Source: Enterobacteria phage FfLavender. From it: a stretch of DNA of 6,412 bases. The position numbers were made by a program, and so were the translations under genes. The notes under the pieces are model-generated. The model was given only the letters and a program-made list of their open reading frames with translations, ran no database searches and was not told where the DNA came from. The stretch lies in sequence record PP430149.1. One strand, written 5' to 3'. Each line of letters opens with the position of its first letter. The first letter of the stretch is position 1. Shown here piece after piece: positions 1 to 6,412 of the stretch.

Positions 1-80
1 CGGCGCATTAAGCGCGGCGGGTGTGGTGGTTACGCGCAGCGTGACCGCTACACTTGCCAGCGCCCTAGCGCCCGCTCCTT
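1..80 (+). promoter_or_regulatory. Ff intergenic-region hairpin A: morphogenetic (packaging) signal, also the region where transcription ending after gene IV terminates
   Basis: GC-rich imperfect inverted repeat (gcgcggcgggtgtggtggt ... gccagcgccctagcgcccgct) immediately after the gene IV stop, matching the position and sequence of the f1/M13 packaging signal as I recall it. Exact hairpin boundaries are approximate. Confidence 0.6.
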
Positions 81-84
81 TCGC

Positions 85-240
85 TTTCTTCCCTTCCTTT
101 CTCGCCACGTTCTCCGGCTTTTCCCCGTCAAGCTCTAAATCGGGGGATCCCTTTAGGGTTCCGATTTAGTGCTTTACGGCACCTCGACCCCCAAAAACTT
201 GATTTGGGTGATGGTTCACGTAGTGGGCCATCGCCCTGAT
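85..240 (+). promoter_or_regulatory. Minus-strand (complementary-strand) origin region, hairpins B/C, site of host RNA polymerase primer synthesis
   Basis: Position between the packaging hairpin and the plus-strand nick site, with recognisable Ff intergenic sequence (ctctaaatcggggg..ccctttagggttccgatttagtgctttacggcacctcgacccc). Boundaries are approximate and rest on the known order of Ff intergenic elements. Confidence 0.5.
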
Positions 241-261
241 AGACGGTTTTTCGCCCTTTGC

Positions 262-315
262 CGTTGGAGTCCACGTTCTTTAATAGTGGACTCTTGTTCC
301 AAACTGGAACAATCA
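262..315 (+). promoter_or_regulatory. Plus-strand origin core (domain A): pII recognition hairpins D and E, with the nick site between 281 and 282
   Basis: Sequence gagtccacgTTCTTT^AATAgtggactc forms the canonical hairpin (stems 268-275 and 287-294) with the pII nick sequence in its loop. It is followed by the second palindrome ttgttccaaactggaacaa (295-312). The nick falls about 281 nt after the gene IV stop, as in M13. Confidence 0.8.
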
Positions 316-434
316 TTACAACCTGCAAGGCCTATTGTTTTGATTTATAAGGGAATTTACCAAATCTAAGCCATTGCTCAAAAAATAACCATATTTAACA
401 GAAATTTAACCCGTTTTTTAACAAAATTTTAACG
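316..434 (+). promoter_or_regulatory. Plus-strand origin domain B (A+T-rich replication enhancer region)
   Basis: A+T-rich noncoding stretch between origin hairpin E and the gene II promoter, partly recognisable as Ff sequence (ttgatttataaggga, aaatttaac, ttttaacaaaat). The assignment is positional. Confidence 0.4.
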
Positions 435-463
435 TTTACAATTTTAATATTTGCTTATACAAT
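435..463 (+). promoter_or_regulatory. Gene II promoter (sigma70-type)
   Basis: TTTACA at 435-440, a 17-nt spacer, then TACAAT at 458-463, about 45 nt upstream of the gene II ATG. This matches the known strong promoter in the Ff intergenic region. Confidence 0.65.
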
Positions 464-469
464 CTTCCT

Positions 470-506
470 GTTTTTGGGGCTTTTCTGATTATCAACCGGG
501 GTATAT
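470..506 (+). promoter_or_regulatory. Gene II mRNA leader with putative pV translational operator and ribosome-binding site
   Basis: U-rich leader gtttttggggcttttctg (470-487), followed by ccgggg a few bases upstream of the ATG at 507. In Ff phages pV represses gene II/X translation by binding the gene II leader. The exact operator bounds are from memory and not verified. Confidence 0.4.
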
Positions 507-1739
507 ATGATTGATATGCTTGTTTTAAGATTACCGTTCATCGATTCTCTTGTTTGCTCCAGGCTTTCAGGTAATGACCTGATAGCCTTTGTAGACCTTT
601 CAAAAATTGCTACCCTCTCCGGCATGAATTTATCAGCTAGAACGGTTGAGTATCATATTGATGGTGATTTTACTGTTTCCGGTCTTTCTCATCCTTTTGA
701 ATCTTTACCTACACATTACTCCGGTATTGCTTTTAAAATATATGAGGGGTCAAAGAATTTTTATCCCTGCGTTGAAATAAAGGCTTCACCTGCAAAAGTT
801 TTACAGGGTCATAATGTTTTTGGTACAACCGATTTAGCTTTATGCTCTGAGGCTTTATTGCTTAATTTTGCTAATTCTCTGCCTTGCCTTTATGATTTAT
901 TGGATGTTAACGCTACTTCTATTAGTAGAATAGATGCCACCTTTTCAGCTCGCGCCCCAAATGAAAATATAGCTAAACAGGTGATTGACCATTTACGCAA
1001 CGTTTCAAATGGTCAAACTAAATCAACACGGTCGCAGAATTGGGAATCTACTGTTACTTGGAATGAAACTTCCAGACACCGTACTTTAGTTGCATATTTA
1101 AAGCACGTTGAATTACAGCATCAGATTCAGCAATTAAGCTCTAAGCCATCGGCAAAAATGACCGCTTATCAGAAGGAGCAATTAAAAGTATTATCCAATC
1201 CTGATTTATTGGAGTTCGCTTCCGGCTTGGTGCGTTTTGAGGCTCGTATAAAAACCAGATACTTAAAGTCTTTCGGACTTCCTCTAAATCTTTTTGATGC
1301 AATTCGCTTTGCATCCGACTATAATAGACAAGGTAAAGACCTGATTTTTGATTTATGGTCATTCTCGTTTTCTGAATTGTTTAAAGCATTTGAGGGGGAT
1401 TCAATGAACATTTATGACGATTCCGCAGTTTTGGACGCTATCCAATCTAAGCATTTTACTGTCACCCCCTCTGGCAAAATCTCTTATGCAAAAGCCTCTC
1501 GCTATTTTGGCTTTTATCGCCGTTTGGTAAATGAGGGATATGATAGCGTTGCTCTTACCATGCCCCGTAATTCCTTTTGGCGCTATGTTTCTACATTAGT
1601 TGAATGCGGCATTCCTAAATCTCAATTAATGAATCTTTCTACCTGTAATAATGTCGTCCCGTTAGTACGTTTTATTAACGTGGATTTTTCCTCCCAACGT
1701 CCTGACTGGTATAATGAGCCAGTTCTTAAAATCGCATAA
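507..1739 (+). CDS. gII: pII, replication initiator: site-specific nickase/ligase for rolling-circle replication
   Basis: 410-aa ORF beginning MIDMLVLRLPFIDSLVCSRLSGNDLIAF and ending NEPVLKIA, recognisably Ff gene II protein. It is the first gene after the intergenic region and has the canonical length. Confidence 0.97.
   Translation: MIDMLVLRLPFIDSLVCSRLSGNDLIAFVDLSKIATLSGMNLSARTVEYHIDGDFTVSGLSHPFESLPTHYSGIAFKIYEGSKNFYPCVEIKASPAKVLQGHNVFGTTDLALCSEALLLNFANSLPCLYDLLDVNATSISRIDATFSARAPNENIAKQVIDHLRNVSNGQTKSTRSQNWESTVTWNETSRHRTLVAYLKHVELQHQIQQLSSKPSAKMTAYQKEQLKVLSNPDLLEFASGLVRFEARIKTRYLKSFGLPLNLFDAIRFASDYNRQGKDLIFDLWSFSFSELFKAFEGDSMNIYDDSAVLDAIQSKHFTVTPSGKISYAKASRYFGFYRRLVNEGYDSVALTMPRNSFWRYVSTLVECGIPKSQLMNLSTCNNVVPLVRFINVDFSSQRPDWYNEPVLKIA
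1404..1739 (+). CDS. gX: pX, replication regulator made from an in-frame internal start within gene II (C-terminal 111 aa of pII)
   Basis: In-frame ATG at 1404 (pII Met300, context ...FEGDS-M-NIYDD) preceded by a purine-rich gagggggatt, giving 111 codons to the shared stop. This matches known Ff gene X. Confidence 0.85.
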   Translation: MNIYDDSAVLDAIQSKHFTVTPSGKISYAKASRYFGFYRRLVNEGYDSVALTMPRNSFWRYVSTLVECGIPKSQLMNLSTCNNVVPLVRFINVDFSSQRPDWYNEPVLKIA

Positions 1740-1750
1740 GGTAATTCAAA

Positions 1751-2014
1751 ATGATTAAAGTTGAAATTAAACCATCTCAAGCGCAATTCACTACCCGTTC
1801 TGGTGTTTCTCGTCAGGGCAAGCCTTATTCACTGAATGAGCAGCTTTGCTATGTGGATTTGGGTAATGAATATCCGGTGCTTGTCAAGATTACCCTTGAT
1901 GAGGGTCAGCCAGCTTACGCGCCCGGCCTCTACACGGTTCATCTTTCCTCTTTCAAAGTTGGTCAGTTCGGTTCTCTTATGATTGACCGTCTGCGCCTCG
2001 TTCCGGCTAAGTAA
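1751..2014 (+). CDS. gV: pV, ssDNA-binding protein and translational repressor
   Basis: 87-aa ORF MIKVEIKPSQAQFTTRSGVSRQGKPYSLNEQLCYVDLGNEYPVLVKITLDEGQPAYAPGLYTVHLSSFKVGQFGSLMIDRLRLVPAK, which matches canonical Ff gene V protein as I recall it. aagg lies upstream of the ATG. Confidence 0.97.
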   Translation: MIKVEIKPSQAQFTTRSGVSRQGKPYSLNEQLCYVDLGNEYPVLVKITLDEGQPAYAPGLYTVHLSSFKVGQFGSLMIDRLRLVPAK

Positions 2015-2015
2015 C

Positions 2016-2117
2016 ATGGAGCAGGTCGCAGATTTCGACACAATTTATCAGGCGATGATACAAATCTCCGTTGTACTTTGTTTCGCGCTTGGTATAATCG
2101 CAGGGGGTCAAAGATGA
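2016..2117 (+). CDS. gVII: pVII, minor coat protein at the virion tip that emerges first
   Basis: ATG at 2016, two bases after the gene V TAA. Translates to MEQVADFDTIYQAMIQISVVLCFALGIIAGGQR (33 aa), stop TGA at 2115-2117. Absent from the ORF track because of its size. Confidence 0.9.
   Translation: MEQVADFDTIYQAMIQISVVLCFALGIIAGGQR
2071..2098 (+). promoter_or_regulatory. Candidate strong promoter for the gene IX/VIII transcript, located inside gene VII
   Basis: TTGTAC at 2071-2076, a 16-nt spacer, then a perfect TATAAT at 2093-2098. This is consistent with the known strong Ff promoter upstream of gene VIII. Confidence 0.55.
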
Positions 2118-2212
2118 GTGTTTTAGTGTATTCTTTCGCCTCTTTCGTATTAGGTTGGTGCCTTCGTAGCGGCATTACGTATTTTACTCGTTTAATGGAA
2201 ACTTCCTCATGA
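2114..2212 (+). CDS. gIX: pIX, minor coat protein at the virion tip that emerges first
   Basis: ATG at 2114 overlaps the gene VII stop (ATGA). Translates to MSVLVYSFASFVLGWCLRSGITYFTRLMETSS (32 aa), stop TGA at 2210-2212, which overlaps the gene VIII ATG. Confidence 0.9.
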   Translation: MSVLVYSFASFVLGWCLRSGITYFTRLMETSS

Positions 2213-2430
2213 AAAAGTCTTTAGTCCTCAAAGCCTCTGTAGCTGTTGCTACCCTCGTTCCTATGCTGTCTTTCGCTGCTCAGGGTGATGATCCCGCTAA
2301 AGCGGCCTTTGACTCTCTTCAAGCCTCTGCAACCGAATATATCGGTTATGCCTGGGCGATGGTTGTTGTTATCGTCGGCGCAACTATCGGTATCAAGCTG
2401 TTTAAGAAATTCACCTCGAAAGCAAGCTGA
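2209..2430 (+). CDS. gVIII: pVIII, major coat protein precursor (23-aa signal peptide plus 50-aa mature protein)
   Basis: 73-aa ORF MKKSLVLKASVAVATLVPMLSFA/AQGDDPAKAAFDSLQASATEYIGYAWAMVVVIVGATIGIKLFKKFTSKAS, with the typical signal peptide, hydrophobic core and basic C-terminus. Confidence 0.97.
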   Translation: MKKSLVLKASVAVATLVPMLSFAAQGDDPAKAAFDSLQASATEYIGYAWAMVVVIVGATIGIKLFKKFTSKAS

Positions 2431-2445
2431 TAACCCGATACAATT

Positions 2446-2473
2446 AAAGGCTCCTTTTGGAGCCTTTTTTTTT
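2446..2473 (+). terminator. Rho-independent terminator downstream of gene VIII
   Basis: Perfect stem aaaggctcc / ggagccttt (2446-2454 and 2459-2467) with a tttt loop, followed by a run of nine T (2465-2473). This is the classic intrinsic terminator after Ff gene VIII. Confidence 0.85.
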
Positions 2474-2486
2474 GGAGATTTTCAAC

Positions 2487-3764
2487 GTGAAAAAATTATT
2501 ATTCGCAATTCCTTTAGTGATTCCCTTTTATTCTCATTCTGCTGAAACTGTTGAAAGTTGTTTAGCTAAACCTCAAACAGAAAATTCATTTACTAACGTC
2601 TGGAAAGACGAAAAAACATTAGATCGTTATGCCAACTATGAAGGTTGCCTCTGGAATGTAACTGGTGTAATTGTTTGTACTGGCGATGAAACTCAGTGTT
2701 ATGGCACTTGGGTTCCTATCGGTGTTGCAATCCCTGAAAATGAGGGTGGTGGCTCTGAGGGTGGTGGCTCTGAGGGTGGCGGTTCTGAGGGTGGTGGTAC
2801 TACTCCCCCTGAGTACGGTGATACTCCTATTCCGGGTTATACCTATATAAATCCTCTTGACGGCACATATCCGCCTGGTACTGAGCAAAACCCTGCTAAC
2901 CCTAACCCTACTCTTTATGAGTCTGAGCCTTTAAATACTTGGATGTTCCAGAATAATAGATTTAGTAATAGGCAAGGTGCATTAACTGTCTATACCAGTA
3001 CTGTTACGCAAGGTACTGACCCTGTTAAAACTTATTACCAGTACACTCCTGTTTCATCTAAAGCCATGTATGACGCTTTCTGGAATGGCAAGTTTAGGGA
3101 TTGCGCTTTTCATTCTGGTTTTAATGAGCATCCATTCGTCTGCAAATATCAAGGCCAATCATCTGACCTGCCCCAACCTCCTATTAATGCTGGCGGCGGT
3201 TCTGGTGGTGGTTCCGAAGGTGGCGGCTCTGAGGGTGGTGGCTCTGAGGGTGGCGGTTCTGAGGGTGGCGGTTCTGAGGGTGGCGGTACTGGCGGCGGCT
3301 CTGGTTCTGGCGATTTTGATTATGACAAAATGGCAAATGCTAATAAGGGGGCATTAACCGAAAATGCAGACGAAAACGCATTACAGAGTGACGCTAAAGG
3401 CAAACTTGATTCTGTCGCTAATGATTACGGTGCTGCTATCGATGGCTTCATCGGTGATGTTTCCGGTCTTGCTAATGGTAATGGTGCTACTGGTGATTTT
3501 GCTGGCTCTAATTCCCAAATGGCGCAAATTGGTGACGGTGATAATTCGCCTTTAATGAATAATTTCCGTCAATATTTACCATCATTGCCGCAGTCCGTTG
3601 AATGTCGTCCTTTCGTATTTGGTGCTGGTAAGCCTTATGAGTTTTCTATTGACTGTGACAAAATAAACTTATTTCGTGGTGTTTTTGCATTTCTGTTATA
3701 CGTTGCTACGTTCATGTATGTTTTTTCAACCTTTGCTAATATTCTGCGTAATAAGGAGTCTTAA
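2487..3764 (+). CDS. gIII: pIII, minor coat and adsorption protein (N1-N2-CT domains with Gly-rich linkers), GTG start
   Basis: GTG at 2487 preceded by ggag. Signal peptide [18 protein letters not shown], then [60 protein letters not shown]-like N1 sequence, two (E)GGGS linker arrays and the C-terminal anchor ...[26 protein letters not shown]. The track's 2457 start is an upstream in-frame extension across the terminator. Confidence 0.95.
2742..2801 (+). repeat. Tandem 15-nt coding repeat (gagggtggtggctct x about 4) encoding the first EGGGS linker of pIII
   Basis: Direct tandem units are visible at 2742-2756, 2757-2771, 2772-2786 and 2787-2801, with minor third-position variation. Confidence 0.9.
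3192..3311 (+). repeat. Tandem 12/15-nt coding repeats encoding the second, longer GGGS/EGGGS linker of pIII
   Basis: Runs of ggtggcggctct / gagggtggcggttct units translate to [40 protein letters not shown]. Confidence 0.9.
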
Positions 3765-3766
3765 TC

Positions 3767-4105
3767 ATGCCAGTATTGTTAGGTATTCCGTTATTACTAC
3801 GCTTTCTGGGTTTCCTTCTGGTAACTTTATTTGGTTATCTCCTTACCTTTTTGAAAAAGGGATTCGGTAAGATAGCTATTGCTATTTCATTGTTTCTCGC
3901 TCTAATTATTGGGCTTAACTCTATTCTCGTGGGTTATCTTTCCGATATTAGCGCACAATTACCCTCTGATTTTGTTCAGGGTGTACAGCTTATTCTCCCT
4001 TCTAATGCGCTTCCCTGTTTTTATGTTATTCTTTCTGTCAAGGCTGCTATATTCATTTTCGATGTTAAGCAAAAAATCGTTACTTATTTGGATTGGGATA
4101 AATAA
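3767..4105 (+). CDS. gVI: pVI, minor coat protein at the pIII end of the virion
   Basis: 112-aa hydrophobic ORF MPVLLGIPLLLRFLGFLLVTLFGYLLTFLKKGFGKIAIAISLFLALIIGLNSILVGYLSDISAQLPSDFVQGVQLILPSNALPCFYVILSVKAAIFIFDVKQKIVTYLDWDK. ATG lies 3 nt after the gene III TAA, with aggag upstream. Confidence 0.95.
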   Translation: MPVLLGIPLLLRFLGFLLVTLFGYLLTFLKKGFGKIAIAISLFLALIIGLNSILVGYLSDISAQLPSDFVQGVQLILPSNALPCFYVILSVKAAIFIFDVKQKIVTYLDWDK

Positions 4106-4107
4106 CT

Positions 4108-5154
4108 ATGGCTGTTTATTTTGTAACTGGTAAATTAGGTTCTGGAAAGACCCTCGTTAGCGTCGGTAAGATTCAGGATAAGATTGTTTCTGGCTGCAAA
4201 ATAGCGACTAATCTTGATTTAAGGCTTCACAACCTCCCGCAAGTCGGGAGGTTTGCTAAAACGCCTCGCGTTCTTAGAATACCGGATAAGCCTTCTATTT
4301 CTGATTTGCTTGCTATTGGTCGTGGTAATGAATCATATGATGAAAATAAAAACGGCTTACTTGTTCTTGATGAATGTGGTACTTGGTTTAATACTCGTTC
4401 GTGGAACGATAAGGAAAGACAGCCGATTATTGATTGGTTTTTGCACGCTCGTAAATTGGGATGGGATATTATTTTTCTTGTTCAGGATTTATCAATAGTT
4501 GATAAACAGGCGCGTTCTGCACTTGCTGAACACGTCGTTTATTGTCGTAGACTTGACAGAATTACATTACCTTTTGTTGGTACTTTGTATTCTTTAATAA
4601 CAGGCTCTAAGATGCCTTTGCCAAAATTGCATGTTGGAGTTGTTAAATATGGAGATTCGCAATTAAGCCCTACCGTTGAGCGTTGGCTTTATACTGGTAA
4701 GAATTTATATAATGCTTATGATACTAAACAGGCATTTTCTAGTAATTATGATTCAGGTGTTTATACATATTTAACTCCTTATTTAACTCATGGTCGGTAT
4801 TTCAAACCTTTAAATTTAGGTCAGAAGATGAAATTAACAAGAATTTATCTCAAAAAGTTTTCACGTATTCTTTGTCTTGCGCTGGGATTTGCATCAGCGT
4901 TTACATATACTTATATAACCCAACCTAAGCAGGAGGTTAAAAAAGTAGTCTCTCAGACCTATGATTTTGATAAATTTACTATTGACTCTTCTCAGCGTCT
5001 TAACCTAAGCTATCGTTATGTTTTCAAGGATTCTAAGGGAAAATTAATTACTAGCGATGATTTAAAGAAGCAAGGTTATTCTCTTACTTATATTGATTTG
5101 TGTACTGTTTCTATTAAAAAAGGTAATTCAAATGAAATTGTTAAATGTAATTAA
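4108..5154 (+). CDS. gI: pI, inner-membrane assembly ATPase (Walker A motif GKLGSGKT)
   Basis: 348-aa ORF starting MAVYFVTGKLGSGKTLVSVGKIQDKIV, with a P-loop near the N-terminus and a central hydrophobic segment (ILCLALGFASAFTYTYI). Canonical position after gene VI. Confidence 0.95.
   Translation: MAVYFVTGKLGSGKTLVSVGKIQDKIVSGCKIATNLDLRLHNLPQVGRFAKTPRVLRIPDKPSISDLLAIGRGNESYDENKNGLLVLDECGTWFNTRSWNDKERQPIIDWFLHARKLGWDIIFLVQDLSIVDKQARSALAEHVVYCRRLDRITLPFVGTLYSLITGSKMPLPKLHVGVVKYGDSQLSPTVERWLYTGKNLYNAYDTKQAFSSNYDSGVYTYLTPYLTHGRYFKPLNLGQKMKLTRIYLKKFSRILCLALGFASAFTYTYITQPKQEVKKVVSQTYDFDKFTIDSSQRLNLSYRYVFKDSKGKLITSDDLKKQGYSLTYIDLCTVSIKKGNSNEIVKCN
4828..5154 (+). CDS. gXI: pXI, assembly protein made from an in-frame internal start within gene I (C-terminal 108 aa of pI)
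   Basis: In-frame ATG at 4828 (pI Met241, context LGQK-M-KLTRIYLKKF) lies just upstream of the membrane-spanning segment. This matches known Ff gene XI. Confidence 0.8.
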   Translation: MKLTRIYLKKFSRILCLALGFASAFTYTYITQPKQEVKKVVSQTYDFDKFTIDSSQRLNLSYRYVFKDSKGKLITSDDLKKQGYSLTYIDLCTVSIKKGNSNEIVKCN

Positions 5155-6412
5155 TTTTGTTTTTCTGATGTTTGTTTCTTCATCTTCTTTTGCGCAAGTA
5201 ATTGAAATGAATAATTCCCCTCTCCGTGATTTCGTCACTTGGTATTCAAAACAGACGGGTGAATCTGTTATTGTTTCCCCTGATGTTAAGGGTACTGTTA
5301 CCGTATATTCATCTGATGTTAAGCCTGATAATTTGCGTAATTTCTTCATTTCTGTTTTACGTGCAAATAATTACGATATGGTTGGTTCCAATCCCTCAAT
5401 TATTCAGAAATATAACCCAAATAATCAGGATTATATTGATGAATTGCCAGCATCTGATAATCAGGAATATGATGATAATACCCCTCCGTCTGGGGGTTTC
5501 TTTGTTCCGCAAAATGATAATGTAACTGAAACTTTTAAAATTAATAACGTTCGCGCAAAGGATTTAATAAGGGTGGTTGAGTTGTTTGTTAAATCAAATA
5601 CCTCTAAATCATCCAACGTATTATCTATTGATGGTTCTAATCTATTAGTCGTTAGCGCCCCTAAAGATATTCTTTCTAGTCTGCCACAATTTCTCTCAAC
5701 TGTTGATTTACCTACAGACCAGATTCTTATTGAGGGTTTAATATTTGAGGTTCAGCAAGGTGAGGCTTTAGATTTTTCTTTTGCTGCTGGTTCTCAACGT
5801 GGCACTGTTGCTGGCGGTGTTAATACAGACCGTTTAACCTCTGTATTATCTTCTGCGGGTGGTTCATTTGGCATTTTTAACGGTGATGTTTTGGGGCTAT
5901 CAGTTCGCGCATTAAAGACTAATAGCCATTCTAAAATATTGTCTGTGCCTCGTATTCTTACCCTTTCAGGTCAAAAGGGTTCTATTTCGGTTGGTCAGAA
6001 TGTGCCTTTTATAACGGGTCGTGTTACTGGTGAATCAGCTAATGTAAATAATCCATTTCAGACAATTGAGCGTCAAAATGTTGGTATTTCTATGAGTGTT
6101 TTTCCTGTAGCAATGGCTGGAGGTAATATTGTTCTTGATATTACAAGCAAGGCAGATAGTTTGAGTTCTTCTACCCAGGCTAGTGACGTGATTACCAATC
6201 AGAGAAGCATTGCGACAACGGTAAATTTACGCGATGGACAGACCCTTTTGCTCGGTGGCCTTACGAATTACAAAAACGCCTCTCAGGATTCTGGAGTGCC
6301 GTTCTTGTCTAAAATCCCTTTAATCGGACTCCTTTTTAGCTCCCGTTCTGATTCTGACGAGGAAAGCACGCTGTACGTGCTCGTAAAAGCAACCGTTGTA
6401 CGCGCCCTGTAG
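5132..6412 (+). CDS. gIV: pIV, outer-membrane secretin (export channel for the phage)
   Basis: ATG at 5132 gives MKLLNVINFVFLMFVSSSSFAQVIEMNNSPLRDF... (426 aa) with the signal peptide and the secretin C-domain (...VPFLSKIPLIGLLFSSRSDSDEESTLYVLVKATVVRAL). It overlaps the gene I 3' end by 23 nt. The track's 5093 start is an upstream in-frame extension. Confidence 0.95.
   Translation: MKLLNVINFVFLMFVSSSSFAQVIEMNNSPLRDFVTWYSKQTGESVIVSPDVKGTVTVYSSDVKPDNLRNFFISVLRANNYDMVGSNPSIIQKYNPNNQDYIDELPASDNQEYDDNTPPSGGFFVPQNDNVTETFKINNVRAKDLIRVVELFVKSNTSKSSNVLSIDGSNLLVVSAPKDILSSLPQFLSTVDLPTDQILIEGLIFEVQQGEALDFSFAAGSQRGTVAGGVNTDRLTSVLSSAGGSFGIFNGDVLGLSVRALKTNSHSKILSVPRILTLSGQKGSISVGQNVPFITGRVTGESANVNNPFQTIERQNVGISMSVFPVAMAGGNIVLDITSKADSLSSSTQASDVITNQRSIATTVNLRDGQTLLLGGLTNYKNASQDSGVPFLSKIPLIGLLFSSRSDSDEESTLYVLVKATVVRAL

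Follow-up and report, generated by a model that had tools for sequence, protein, structure and literature searches.

The complete Ff-type inovirus genome analysed here (6412 nt, hereafter the window) raises the question of where translation of genes III and IV begins. A listing of open reading frames that accepts the longest frame starts both of them at TTG codons: gene III spans 2457..3764 in this listing and encodes 435 aa, while gene IV spans 5093..6412 and encodes 439 aa with the N-terminus MICVLFLLKKVIQMKLLNVINF... (all features given below lie on the + strand). The listing reproduces exactly the position 2457 from which the ORF track was originally reported to begin gene III. In the gene III frame the upstream in-frame stop, TAA 2445, is followed by three start-capable codons, namely TTG 2457, TTG 2472 and GTG 2487; in the gene IV frame the stop TAA 5063 is followed by TTG 5093-5095 and ATG 5132-5134. 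Basing the assignment on positions, homology to annotated starts, the pattern of substitutions and the N-termini of homologous mature chains, we conclude that gene III very probably starts at GTG 2487 and gene IV at ATG 5132, a reading to which we assign a probability of about 0.97. The starts at TTG 2457 and TTG 5093 are artefacts of the longest-ORF rule.

The genes of the window follow the canonical order II(X)-V-VII-IX-VIII-III-VI-I(XI)-IV, and its first base lies just 3' of the gene IV stop codon, a coordinate origin that is common to the records PP430147, PP430148, PP430150 and PP430151. Our comparison set comprised ten annotated Ff genomes plus a fragment of V00604.2, drawn from FfIris, FfAmethyst, FfLilac, FfViolet, Copypasta, fd, f1 (three records) and M13 (two records). 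In megablast searches against annotated phage records the window was covered over 100% of its length, with a top identity of 90.8% (FfIris, FfAmethyst, FfLilac and FfViolet) and identities of 90.0-90.4% to f1, fd and M13. Identity between the window and each of the ten annotated Ff genomes is 89.8-90.8%; any two of the ten share at least 96.2%. By the usual ICTV criterion, a genome is assigned to a species if its nucleotide identity to members is 95% or higher, and the window, at 89.8-90.8%, falls below this value for the species Inovirus M13 (the f1/fd/M13 group). It has the gene order of other Ff phages and all ten or eleven of their genes. Thus, going by its sequence, the window is an Ff phage in its workings yet belongs to a separate lineage, since it is roughly equidistant from all annotated Ff genomes. 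To this lineage also belong six contigs that come from wastewater-type metagenomes, from NCBI assemblies and from a Logan run and are 98.3-99.6% identical to the window; three of them carry 55-nt terminal repeats, which imply a circle of 6412 nt. The differences between the window and the other Ff genomes, about 9-10%, are overwhelmingly synonymous, with 111 synonymous and 22 non-synonymous codon differences in gene III and 115 and 14, respectively, in gene IV. Given this mostly synonymous divergence, codon periodicity can reveal which frame is read.

Examination of the region upstream of gene III revealed that it is dominated by a transcription termination signal. Gene VIII, which codes for the major coat protein, occupies 2209..2430 (coordinates as in the FfLilac annotation) and ends in TGA 2428-2430, followed directly by TAA 2431-2433. 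A terminator scan combined with folding predicts a rho-independent terminator at 2446..2473, in which the hairpin 2446-2467, AAAGGCTCC-TTTT-GGAGCCTTT, forms nine pairs (five of them G-C) around a loop of 4 nt and has a run of nine T residues (2465-2473) directly on its 3' side. The RNA of the 76-nt segment 2425-2500 folds at -19.9 kcal/mol (z = -3.7), a stability equalled by none of 200 shuffled sequences; with a G+C-rich hairpin and a U-run that together outperform the shuffles, the element has the features of a predicted intrinsic terminator. Its sequence is invariant in 11 Ff genomes and in the six same-lineage contigs. TTG 2457..2459, the mechanical ORF start, has its TT at the end of the hairpin loop and its G at the beginning of the 3' arm, and the ten codons by which it extends pIII run from that arm through the T-run and the GGAG to the spacer. 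The best pairing of the sequence upstream of this TTG with the anti-Shine-Dalgarno (anti-SD) sequence is weak (-3.2 kcal/mol), and no annotated record uses it. The original prediction had called a start inside the gene VIII terminator region implausible, and the location of the TTG at the boundary of loop and 3' arm, together with its weak anti-SD pairing, bears this out.

The same prediction had placed the genuine start at GTG 2487..2489, preceded by ggag. We indeed recover a Shine-Dalgarno GGAG at 2474..2477, 9 nt upstream of the GTG, whose duplex with the anti-SD (-6.4 kcal/mol) is the strongest among the three candidate starts of gene III. This GTG is homologous to the annotated start in ten Ff records; the start codon is GTG in nine of the ten, the exception being the M13 reference (V00604.2, NC_003287.2), which has ATG. 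Such a substitution of one start codon for another marks this codon as the initiator. The annotation of f1 in V00606 explicitly reads "gene III; valine start", and the alignment and motif scan identify the window's GTG, downstream of the gene VIII terminator, as the homologue of this f1/fd codon. The comparison with annotated pIII and pIV that had been proposed as a check thus came out in its favor, with all ten Ff records starting at homologous codons (for instance, genes III and IV at 2486 and 5128 in FfIris, and at 2487 and 5144 in FfLilac). There is some circularity in this agreement, since the early f1, fd and M13 annotation has been carried over into later records and Pfam seeds. Gene calls on the same-lineage contigs give a pIII of 425 aa, i.e. 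the GTG form, in four of the six, the gene being cut by the contig end in the other two (L014 and L016).

The pattern of variation around the GTG provides a further, weaker line of evidence. The spacer between genes VIII and III is 56 nt long and differs from that of the other Ff genomes at one base (2434); the region 2435-2486 is invariant in 11 genomes that are up to about 10% diverged, and in the six same-lineage contigs. Among the 11 genomes the third codon positions of gene III start to vary right after 2487. Since constraint on the terminator and ribosome-binding site explains the invariance of 2435-2486 equally well, invariance alone does not exclude that this region is coding. In folding predictions the GTG has a probability of being unpaired of about 0.1, sitting as it does in a weak UUUUCA/UGAAAA hairpin, and the corresponding value for the Shine-Dalgarno element is context-dependent (0.60 or 0.05), so that predicted accessibility does not speak for the GTG.

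Gene IV begins in a different setting, namely within the 3' end of gene I (4108..5154, from ORF and annotation), the final 23 nt of which overlap gene IV. The mechanical start TTG 5093..5095 lies inside gene I, and the best anti-SD pairing upstream of it is weak (-2.7 kcal/mol). ATG 5132..5134 follows a Shine-Dalgarno-like element, AAAGGT (5119..5124), which forms a duplex of -3.9 kcal/mol with the anti-SD and is invariant among all Ff genomes compared. The assignment of gene IV to ATG 5132 instead of 5093, likewise part of the original prediction, agrees with the annotated start in ten of ten Ff records and with the substitution pattern across the two codons. Additionally, the exact 426-aa product of this ATG is recorded on 23 public contigs, and gene IV is called as 426 aa on all six same-lineage contigs that were fetched.

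The substitution pattern at this locus is informative about the frame. Between 5093 and 5131 there are three variable columns (5100, 5103 and 5112), all of which fall on position 3 of gene I codons and on position 2 in the gene IV frame, where they would result in the non-synonymous changes C/Y, V/A and L/Q/P; the G/A variant at 5100 is also carried by one of the same-lineage contigs, L014. With its substitutions on gene I third positions, the extension evolves as coding sequence of gene I and not of gene IV. Past the end of gene I, the stretch 5155-5220 contains seven variable columns, five at position 3 of gene IV codons and two at position 1, one of the latter being a synonymous CTG/TTG change; nearly all substitutions here are thus silent for gene IV.

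We then compared the predicted precursors with the known mature chains of their homologues. The leaders were judged by charge, hydropathy and the -3/-1 rule, and the cleavage sites were taken from the homologues' mature chains; as features of a Sec-type leader we considered a short basic n-region, a hydrophobic h-region some 7-15 residues long and small amino acids at -3/-1. The g3p chains 8b3o, 1g3p and 2g3p begin with AETVES, whose first residue is number 29 in the long ORF and number 19 when counted from the GTG. This delimits a pIII signal peptide of 18 codons (2487..2540), followed by the mature pIII of 407 aa and its stop codon (2541..3764), as delineated by the ORF and the homologue structures. 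The leader has an MKK n-region, a hydrophobic core of 12 residues and the cleavage site SHS|AE, in keeping with a Sec-type signal by hand-applied hydropathy descriptors. Mature f1 pIII has 406 aa (f1 cryo-EM paper); the mature pIII of the window is one residue longer than that of f1, and the extra residue lies in the glycine-rich linker 2. Likewise, the f1 pIV chain 7ofh begins with QVIEMN, the Q being number 35 in the long ORF and number 22 when counted from the ATG, and f1 pIV is reported to lose 21 signal-sequence residues (PMC8563730). In the window this N-terminus delimits a pIV signal peptide of 21 codons, MKLLNVINFVFLMFVSSSSFA (5132..5194), and a mature pIV secretin of 405 aa with its stop codon (5195..6412; from the ORF, 7ofh and Pfam). 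The pIV leader, MK / LLNVINFVFLMFV / SSSSFA|QV, has the Sec-type features by the same hand-applied descriptors. Judged from these descriptors, the short forms of both pIII and pIV would be furnished with textbook Sec leaders.

Sequence searches are in accord with these boundaries. The Pfam domain PF05357 (Phage_Coat_A) matches pIII with 190.3 bits (cutoff 20.8), its profile positions 2-63 aligning to residues 12-75 of the long ORF, i.e. the profile begins at the N-terminus of the GTG form. The match to 8b3o (E = 1e-266) places residues 29-435 of the long ORF on residues 1-406 of the mature chain, and the similarity to characterised g3p runs over the full length, including N1, N2, the glycine linkers and the C domain with its membrane anchor. 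In pIV the C-domain of the secretins and the N0 and N3-type domains all score above their gathering thresholds, with PF00263 at 148.2 bits (cutoff 27.5), PF21305 at 47.6 (27.0) and PF03958 at 29.4 (28.2), and 7ofh is recovered with E = 1e-245, which identifies it as a secretin. Because the leader is cleaved off either way, the choice of start leaves mature pIII and pIV unchanged.

The layout described above is shared with the closest known systems. In f1, fd and M13 (gene III: V00606 CDS 1579-2853, fd J02451, FfIris PP430148) gene III has the hairpin, the run of nine T, the GGAG and the 9-nt spacer in common with the window; a single substitution (V to I at position 12) separates the signal peptides, and the mature protein is about 5% divergent at the amino-acid level, the window having the extra linker-2 residue. 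The M13 reference records differ in the initiation codon itself, as noted above. The ATG of gene IV in f1/fd/M13 (CDS 4220-5500; 7OFH) is likewise 23 nt inside gene I, and the sequence from AAAGGT (5119) through the overlap (5154) is identical to that of the window. The pIV proteins of these phages have the same 21-residue signal peptide and the mature N-terminus QVIEMNNSPLRDF, and share 96-97% amino-acid identity with that of the window, the DNA differences being mostly synonymous.

More distant phages, from genera different from that of the window's phage, retain the architecture. Both I2-2 (Lineavirus, X14336) and If1 (Infulavirus, U02303) have gene VIII followed by a G+C-rich hairpin, a Shine-Dalgarno sequence and the start of gene III; the hairpin of I2-2 passes the terminator scan (4922-4943 plus a T-run), whereas that of If1 fails it. 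The pIII leaders of both phages comprise basic residues and then a hydrophobic stretch, although their sequences are unrelated to that of the window. Gene III of I2-2 has an annotated GTG start (VKRKIIAISLF...), like the window, with only three open codons upstream, and that of If1 has an ATG (MKKIIIALFF...) with a TAA directly before it. Their pIV proteins are about 50% identical to that of the window, in an alignment that sets in at the mature N-terminus (about residue 21-24). As I2-2 and If1 have no upstream open frame, no over-extension arises in them and the extended forms are impossible there.

Against this background we considered whether the long forms could be real, such that TTG 2457, TTG 5093 or both are used and the precursors carry leaders of 28 and 34 residues. 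Both ORFs are open from these codons, and the structures are unable to tell the long from the short forms, since they show the proteins after loss of the leader. Nevertheless, we regard this as extremely improbable, as TTG 2457 lies within the terminator hairpin with weak anti-SD pairing upstream, and neither it nor TTG 5093 is used by any annotated record or gene caller that we examined. The long leaders are also atypical: with the two acidic residues of its extension the pIII leader has a net charge of 0, and in the long pIV leader (MICVLFLLKKVIQ...) a hydrophobic ICVLFLL precedes the basic residues. Moreover, the substitutions in 5093-5131 are not only non-synonymous but also radical in the gene IV frame, and I2-2 and If1 are devoid of an open frame for such extensions. 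At the opposite extreme, gene IV might start further 3', at ATG 5168 or ATG 5207, both of which are in frame. The leader that results from the former, MFVSSSSFA, has nine residues, lacks a basic n-region and has a hydrophobic core that is too short, while the latter falls past the mature N-terminus QVIEMN seen in 7ofh and has essentially no anti-SD pairing upstream (-0.2 kcal/mol). Further, the substitutions in 5155-5207 are synonymous in the gene IV frame, and this stretch is therefore coding. Starts at either of these ATGs have, in our assessment, a vanishingly small chance of being correct.

A subtler alternative is minor initiation at the second in-frame TTG of gene III (2472..2474), which would yield a small fraction of pre-pIII with a 5-residue extension (MEIFN-VKK...). 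The motif TTTTGGAG occurs twice in this region, at 2455-2462 and 2470-2477, each time 9 nt upstream of an in-frame start-capable codon; the GGAG at 2459-2462 has the spacing of the true Shine-Dalgarno element and forms a duplex of -5.6 kcal/mol with the anti-SD, and the frame is open. However, this GGAG makes up part of the terminator stem, on its 3' side, and is predicted to be fully paired (probability of being unpaired 0.00) in each of the two contexts that were folded, the one firm outcome of the accessibility predictions; TTG codons initiate weakly, and the extension would put an acidic residue into the n-region. The hairpin sequence by itself yields the arrangement of the two motifs, so that no further explanation is needed for it. 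We hence consider minor initiation here very unlikely and TTG 2472 a cryptic candidate that is probably unused; were it used, mature pIII would be unaffected. A conditional version of this idea may also be envisaged, wherein ribosomes also initiate at TTG 2472 if the hairpin has melted, or is missing because the transcript starts within it. In that event a pre-pIII with a 5-residue, less basic leader would tune the export of pIII. What speaks for such a site is the sequence arrangement, which the hairpin would produce as well, and we give this possibility very little credence.

Returning to initiation at GTG 2487 and ATG 5132, the evidence suggests the following scheme for the expression of the two genes. 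Translation of gene III would begin at the GTG, directed by the GGAG 9 nt upstream, right after the terminator of the gene II-VIII transcription unit. The gene II-VIII block is highly transcribed, and pIII is required at about five copies per virion. In light of established Ff biology, the weak GTG and the placement behind a strong terminator may help hold the output of pIII low. The resulting pre-pIII would carry an 18-residue Sec signal (fM-KK, hydrophobic core, SHS), and signal peptidase would cut before AETVES to release the 407-aa attachment protein. Gene IV would be translated from ATG 5132, after AAAGGT, in a frame other than that of gene I, whose last 23 nt it overlaps, and established Ff biology also suggests that this overlap may allow translational coupling of pIV to gene I. 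The 21-residue signal of pre-pIV would be cut before QVIEMN to give the 405-aa secretin. TTG 2457 and TTG 5093 would merely be the earliest start-capable triplets past the in-frame stop, unused by ribosomes.

With regard to the transcription of gene III, a promoter-like match is present at 2416-2444 (TCGAAA, 17 nt, TACAAT), which agrees with the consensus at only 9 of 12 positions. Across the window the count of such promoters is 19, as against 14.7 ± 3.0 in shuffled sequences, which is not clearly higher; we accordingly make no claim that this match is a gene III promoter. A full-text literature search on the gene III GTG, read-through of the terminator and a gene III promoter returned only unrelated papers on phage display and PACE, and for this reason our statements on gene III transcription draw on general knowledge.

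The original observation is thus confirmed and its interpretation supported, with nothing new in the starts themselves, which have long been annotated: the "valine start" of gene III and the overlap of genes I and IV have been part of the annotation since the first f1, fd and M13 sequences of about 1980. The importance of the result is limited to annotation. The longest-ORF rule also over-extends gene VII (TTG 1983 versus ATG 2016) and gene IX (TTG 2078 versus ATG 2114), and a version of it that accepts TTG and GTG thereby mis-starts four of the nine non-nested genes. Such mis-starts would add false residues to the precursors of pIII and pIV, and these could upset the prediction of signal peptides or the numbering of residues in phage display. 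Additionally, the unchanged GTG of gene III and the unchanged I/IV overlap in a lineage that is 9-10% diverged add slightly to the evidence for functional constraint on both.

Finally, the lineage to which the window belongs is a natural one that recurs in public assemblies, as its contigs show. A 2025 methods paper describes sewage isolates that are 98.51% identical to FfLavender (PP430149.1, 6412 bp), a value similar to the 98.3-99.6% of the same-lineage contigs found here. Scans with pIII recovered no intermediate relatives from genome contigs and viral contigs: from the former came nothing but M13-like fragments, located in the unrelated assemblies of a SAR11 single-cell genome and a Marinobacter and taken by us to be vector contamination, and from the latter a single ordinary Ff contig. 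Within the lineage the charge of the exposed N-terminus of mature pVIII varies, this segment being AQGDD in the window and AEGDN, AEVDN, D12A and AEGDG elsewhere.

Whole-genome comparison of the window (1-6412) with each of the annotated Ff phages, including f1, fd, M13 and FfIris, recovered identities of 89.8-90.8%, and the annotated phages are at least 96.2% identical among themselves. The usual line for delimiting species is 95% identity and, by this sequence measure, the window is a separate Ff lineage lying under that line. The differences from the annotated phages are synonymous by a large majority: the differing codons of gene III comprise 111 synonymous and 22 non-synonymous cases, and those of gene V comprise 15 synonymous and none that are non-synonymous. 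The lineage was found repeatedly in public data, with the exact pIV sequence occurring on 23 contigs. Six contigs that we fetched (L011-L016; from the ENA metagenomes LOUY21, two NCBI GCA assemblies and one Logan run) match the window at 98.3-99.6% identity, and three of these six carry 55-nt terminal repeats, which imply a circle of 6412 nt. FfLavender itself (PP430149.1, 6412 bp) is cited in PMC12648497.

Charge differs among close relatives in the surface-exposed residues 1-13 of mature pVIII (window 2278-2316). The N-terminus reads AQGDD in the window (E2Q), AEGDN in contig L011, AEVDN in contig L013 and AEGDG in FfIris, and there are further substitutions in contig L015 (D12A) and M13 (D12N). 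Outside this segment pVIII is nearly invariant, the exception being a single signal-peptide change, S to T, in contig L016. Such N-terminal variation could reflect diversifying selection on the surface charge of the virion, or else simply tolerance of change at that site.

Examination of the gene III start revealed a difference within the M13 records themselves: the reference records NC_003287.2 and V00604.2 have ATG (L002 1579 and L023 100), and the M13 isolate Rutgers (JX412914; L009 1579) has GTG, which is also the codon in f1 and fd, in the new Ff isolates and in the window. Either the codon is truly polymorphic or the difference goes back to an old discrepancy in the sequences. Upstream of the gene, TTTTGGAG is present in two copies within window 2455-2477, spaced 15 nt apart, the first of which lies in the terminator hairpin, within its loop and 3' arm, and the second at the true ribosome-binding site. 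Both copies are followed 9 nt downstream by an in-frame codon capable of serving as a start, namely TTG 2472 and GTG 2487. A promoter-like match also occurs at the end of gene VIII (window 2416-2444; TCGAAA, 17 nt, TACAAT), which agrees with the consensus at 9 of 12 positions and is a consensus match only; the count of promoters across the window is not clearly higher than in shuffled sequence. Transcription from this candidate would start within the terminator hairpin, in its 5' arm, so that the resulting transcript would be unable to form that hairpin.

The ORF finder also over-extended genes VII (window 1983-2117; TTG 1983 in place of the annotated ATG 2016) and IX (window 2078-2212; TTG 2078 in place of ATG 2114), so that four of the nine non-nested genes are mis-started, with TTG each time. 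Its listing lacks the nested genes X (ATG 1404, with a strong SD of -11.3 kcal/mol) and XI (ATG 4828).

Among other records, M13-like gene III fragments with 91-97% amino-acid identity were recovered from two assemblies in genome_contigs (L017-L019), one of a SAR11 single cell (JPUP01) and one of a Marinobacter (PYVH01); we take these to be contamination by cloning vector or laboratory phage. In FfViolet, whose genome is 6388 nt, gene IV (L005 5127-6374) is annotated as 415 rather than 426 residues, and the C-terminus of its pIV appears to be truncated or altered relative to all other Ff genomes.
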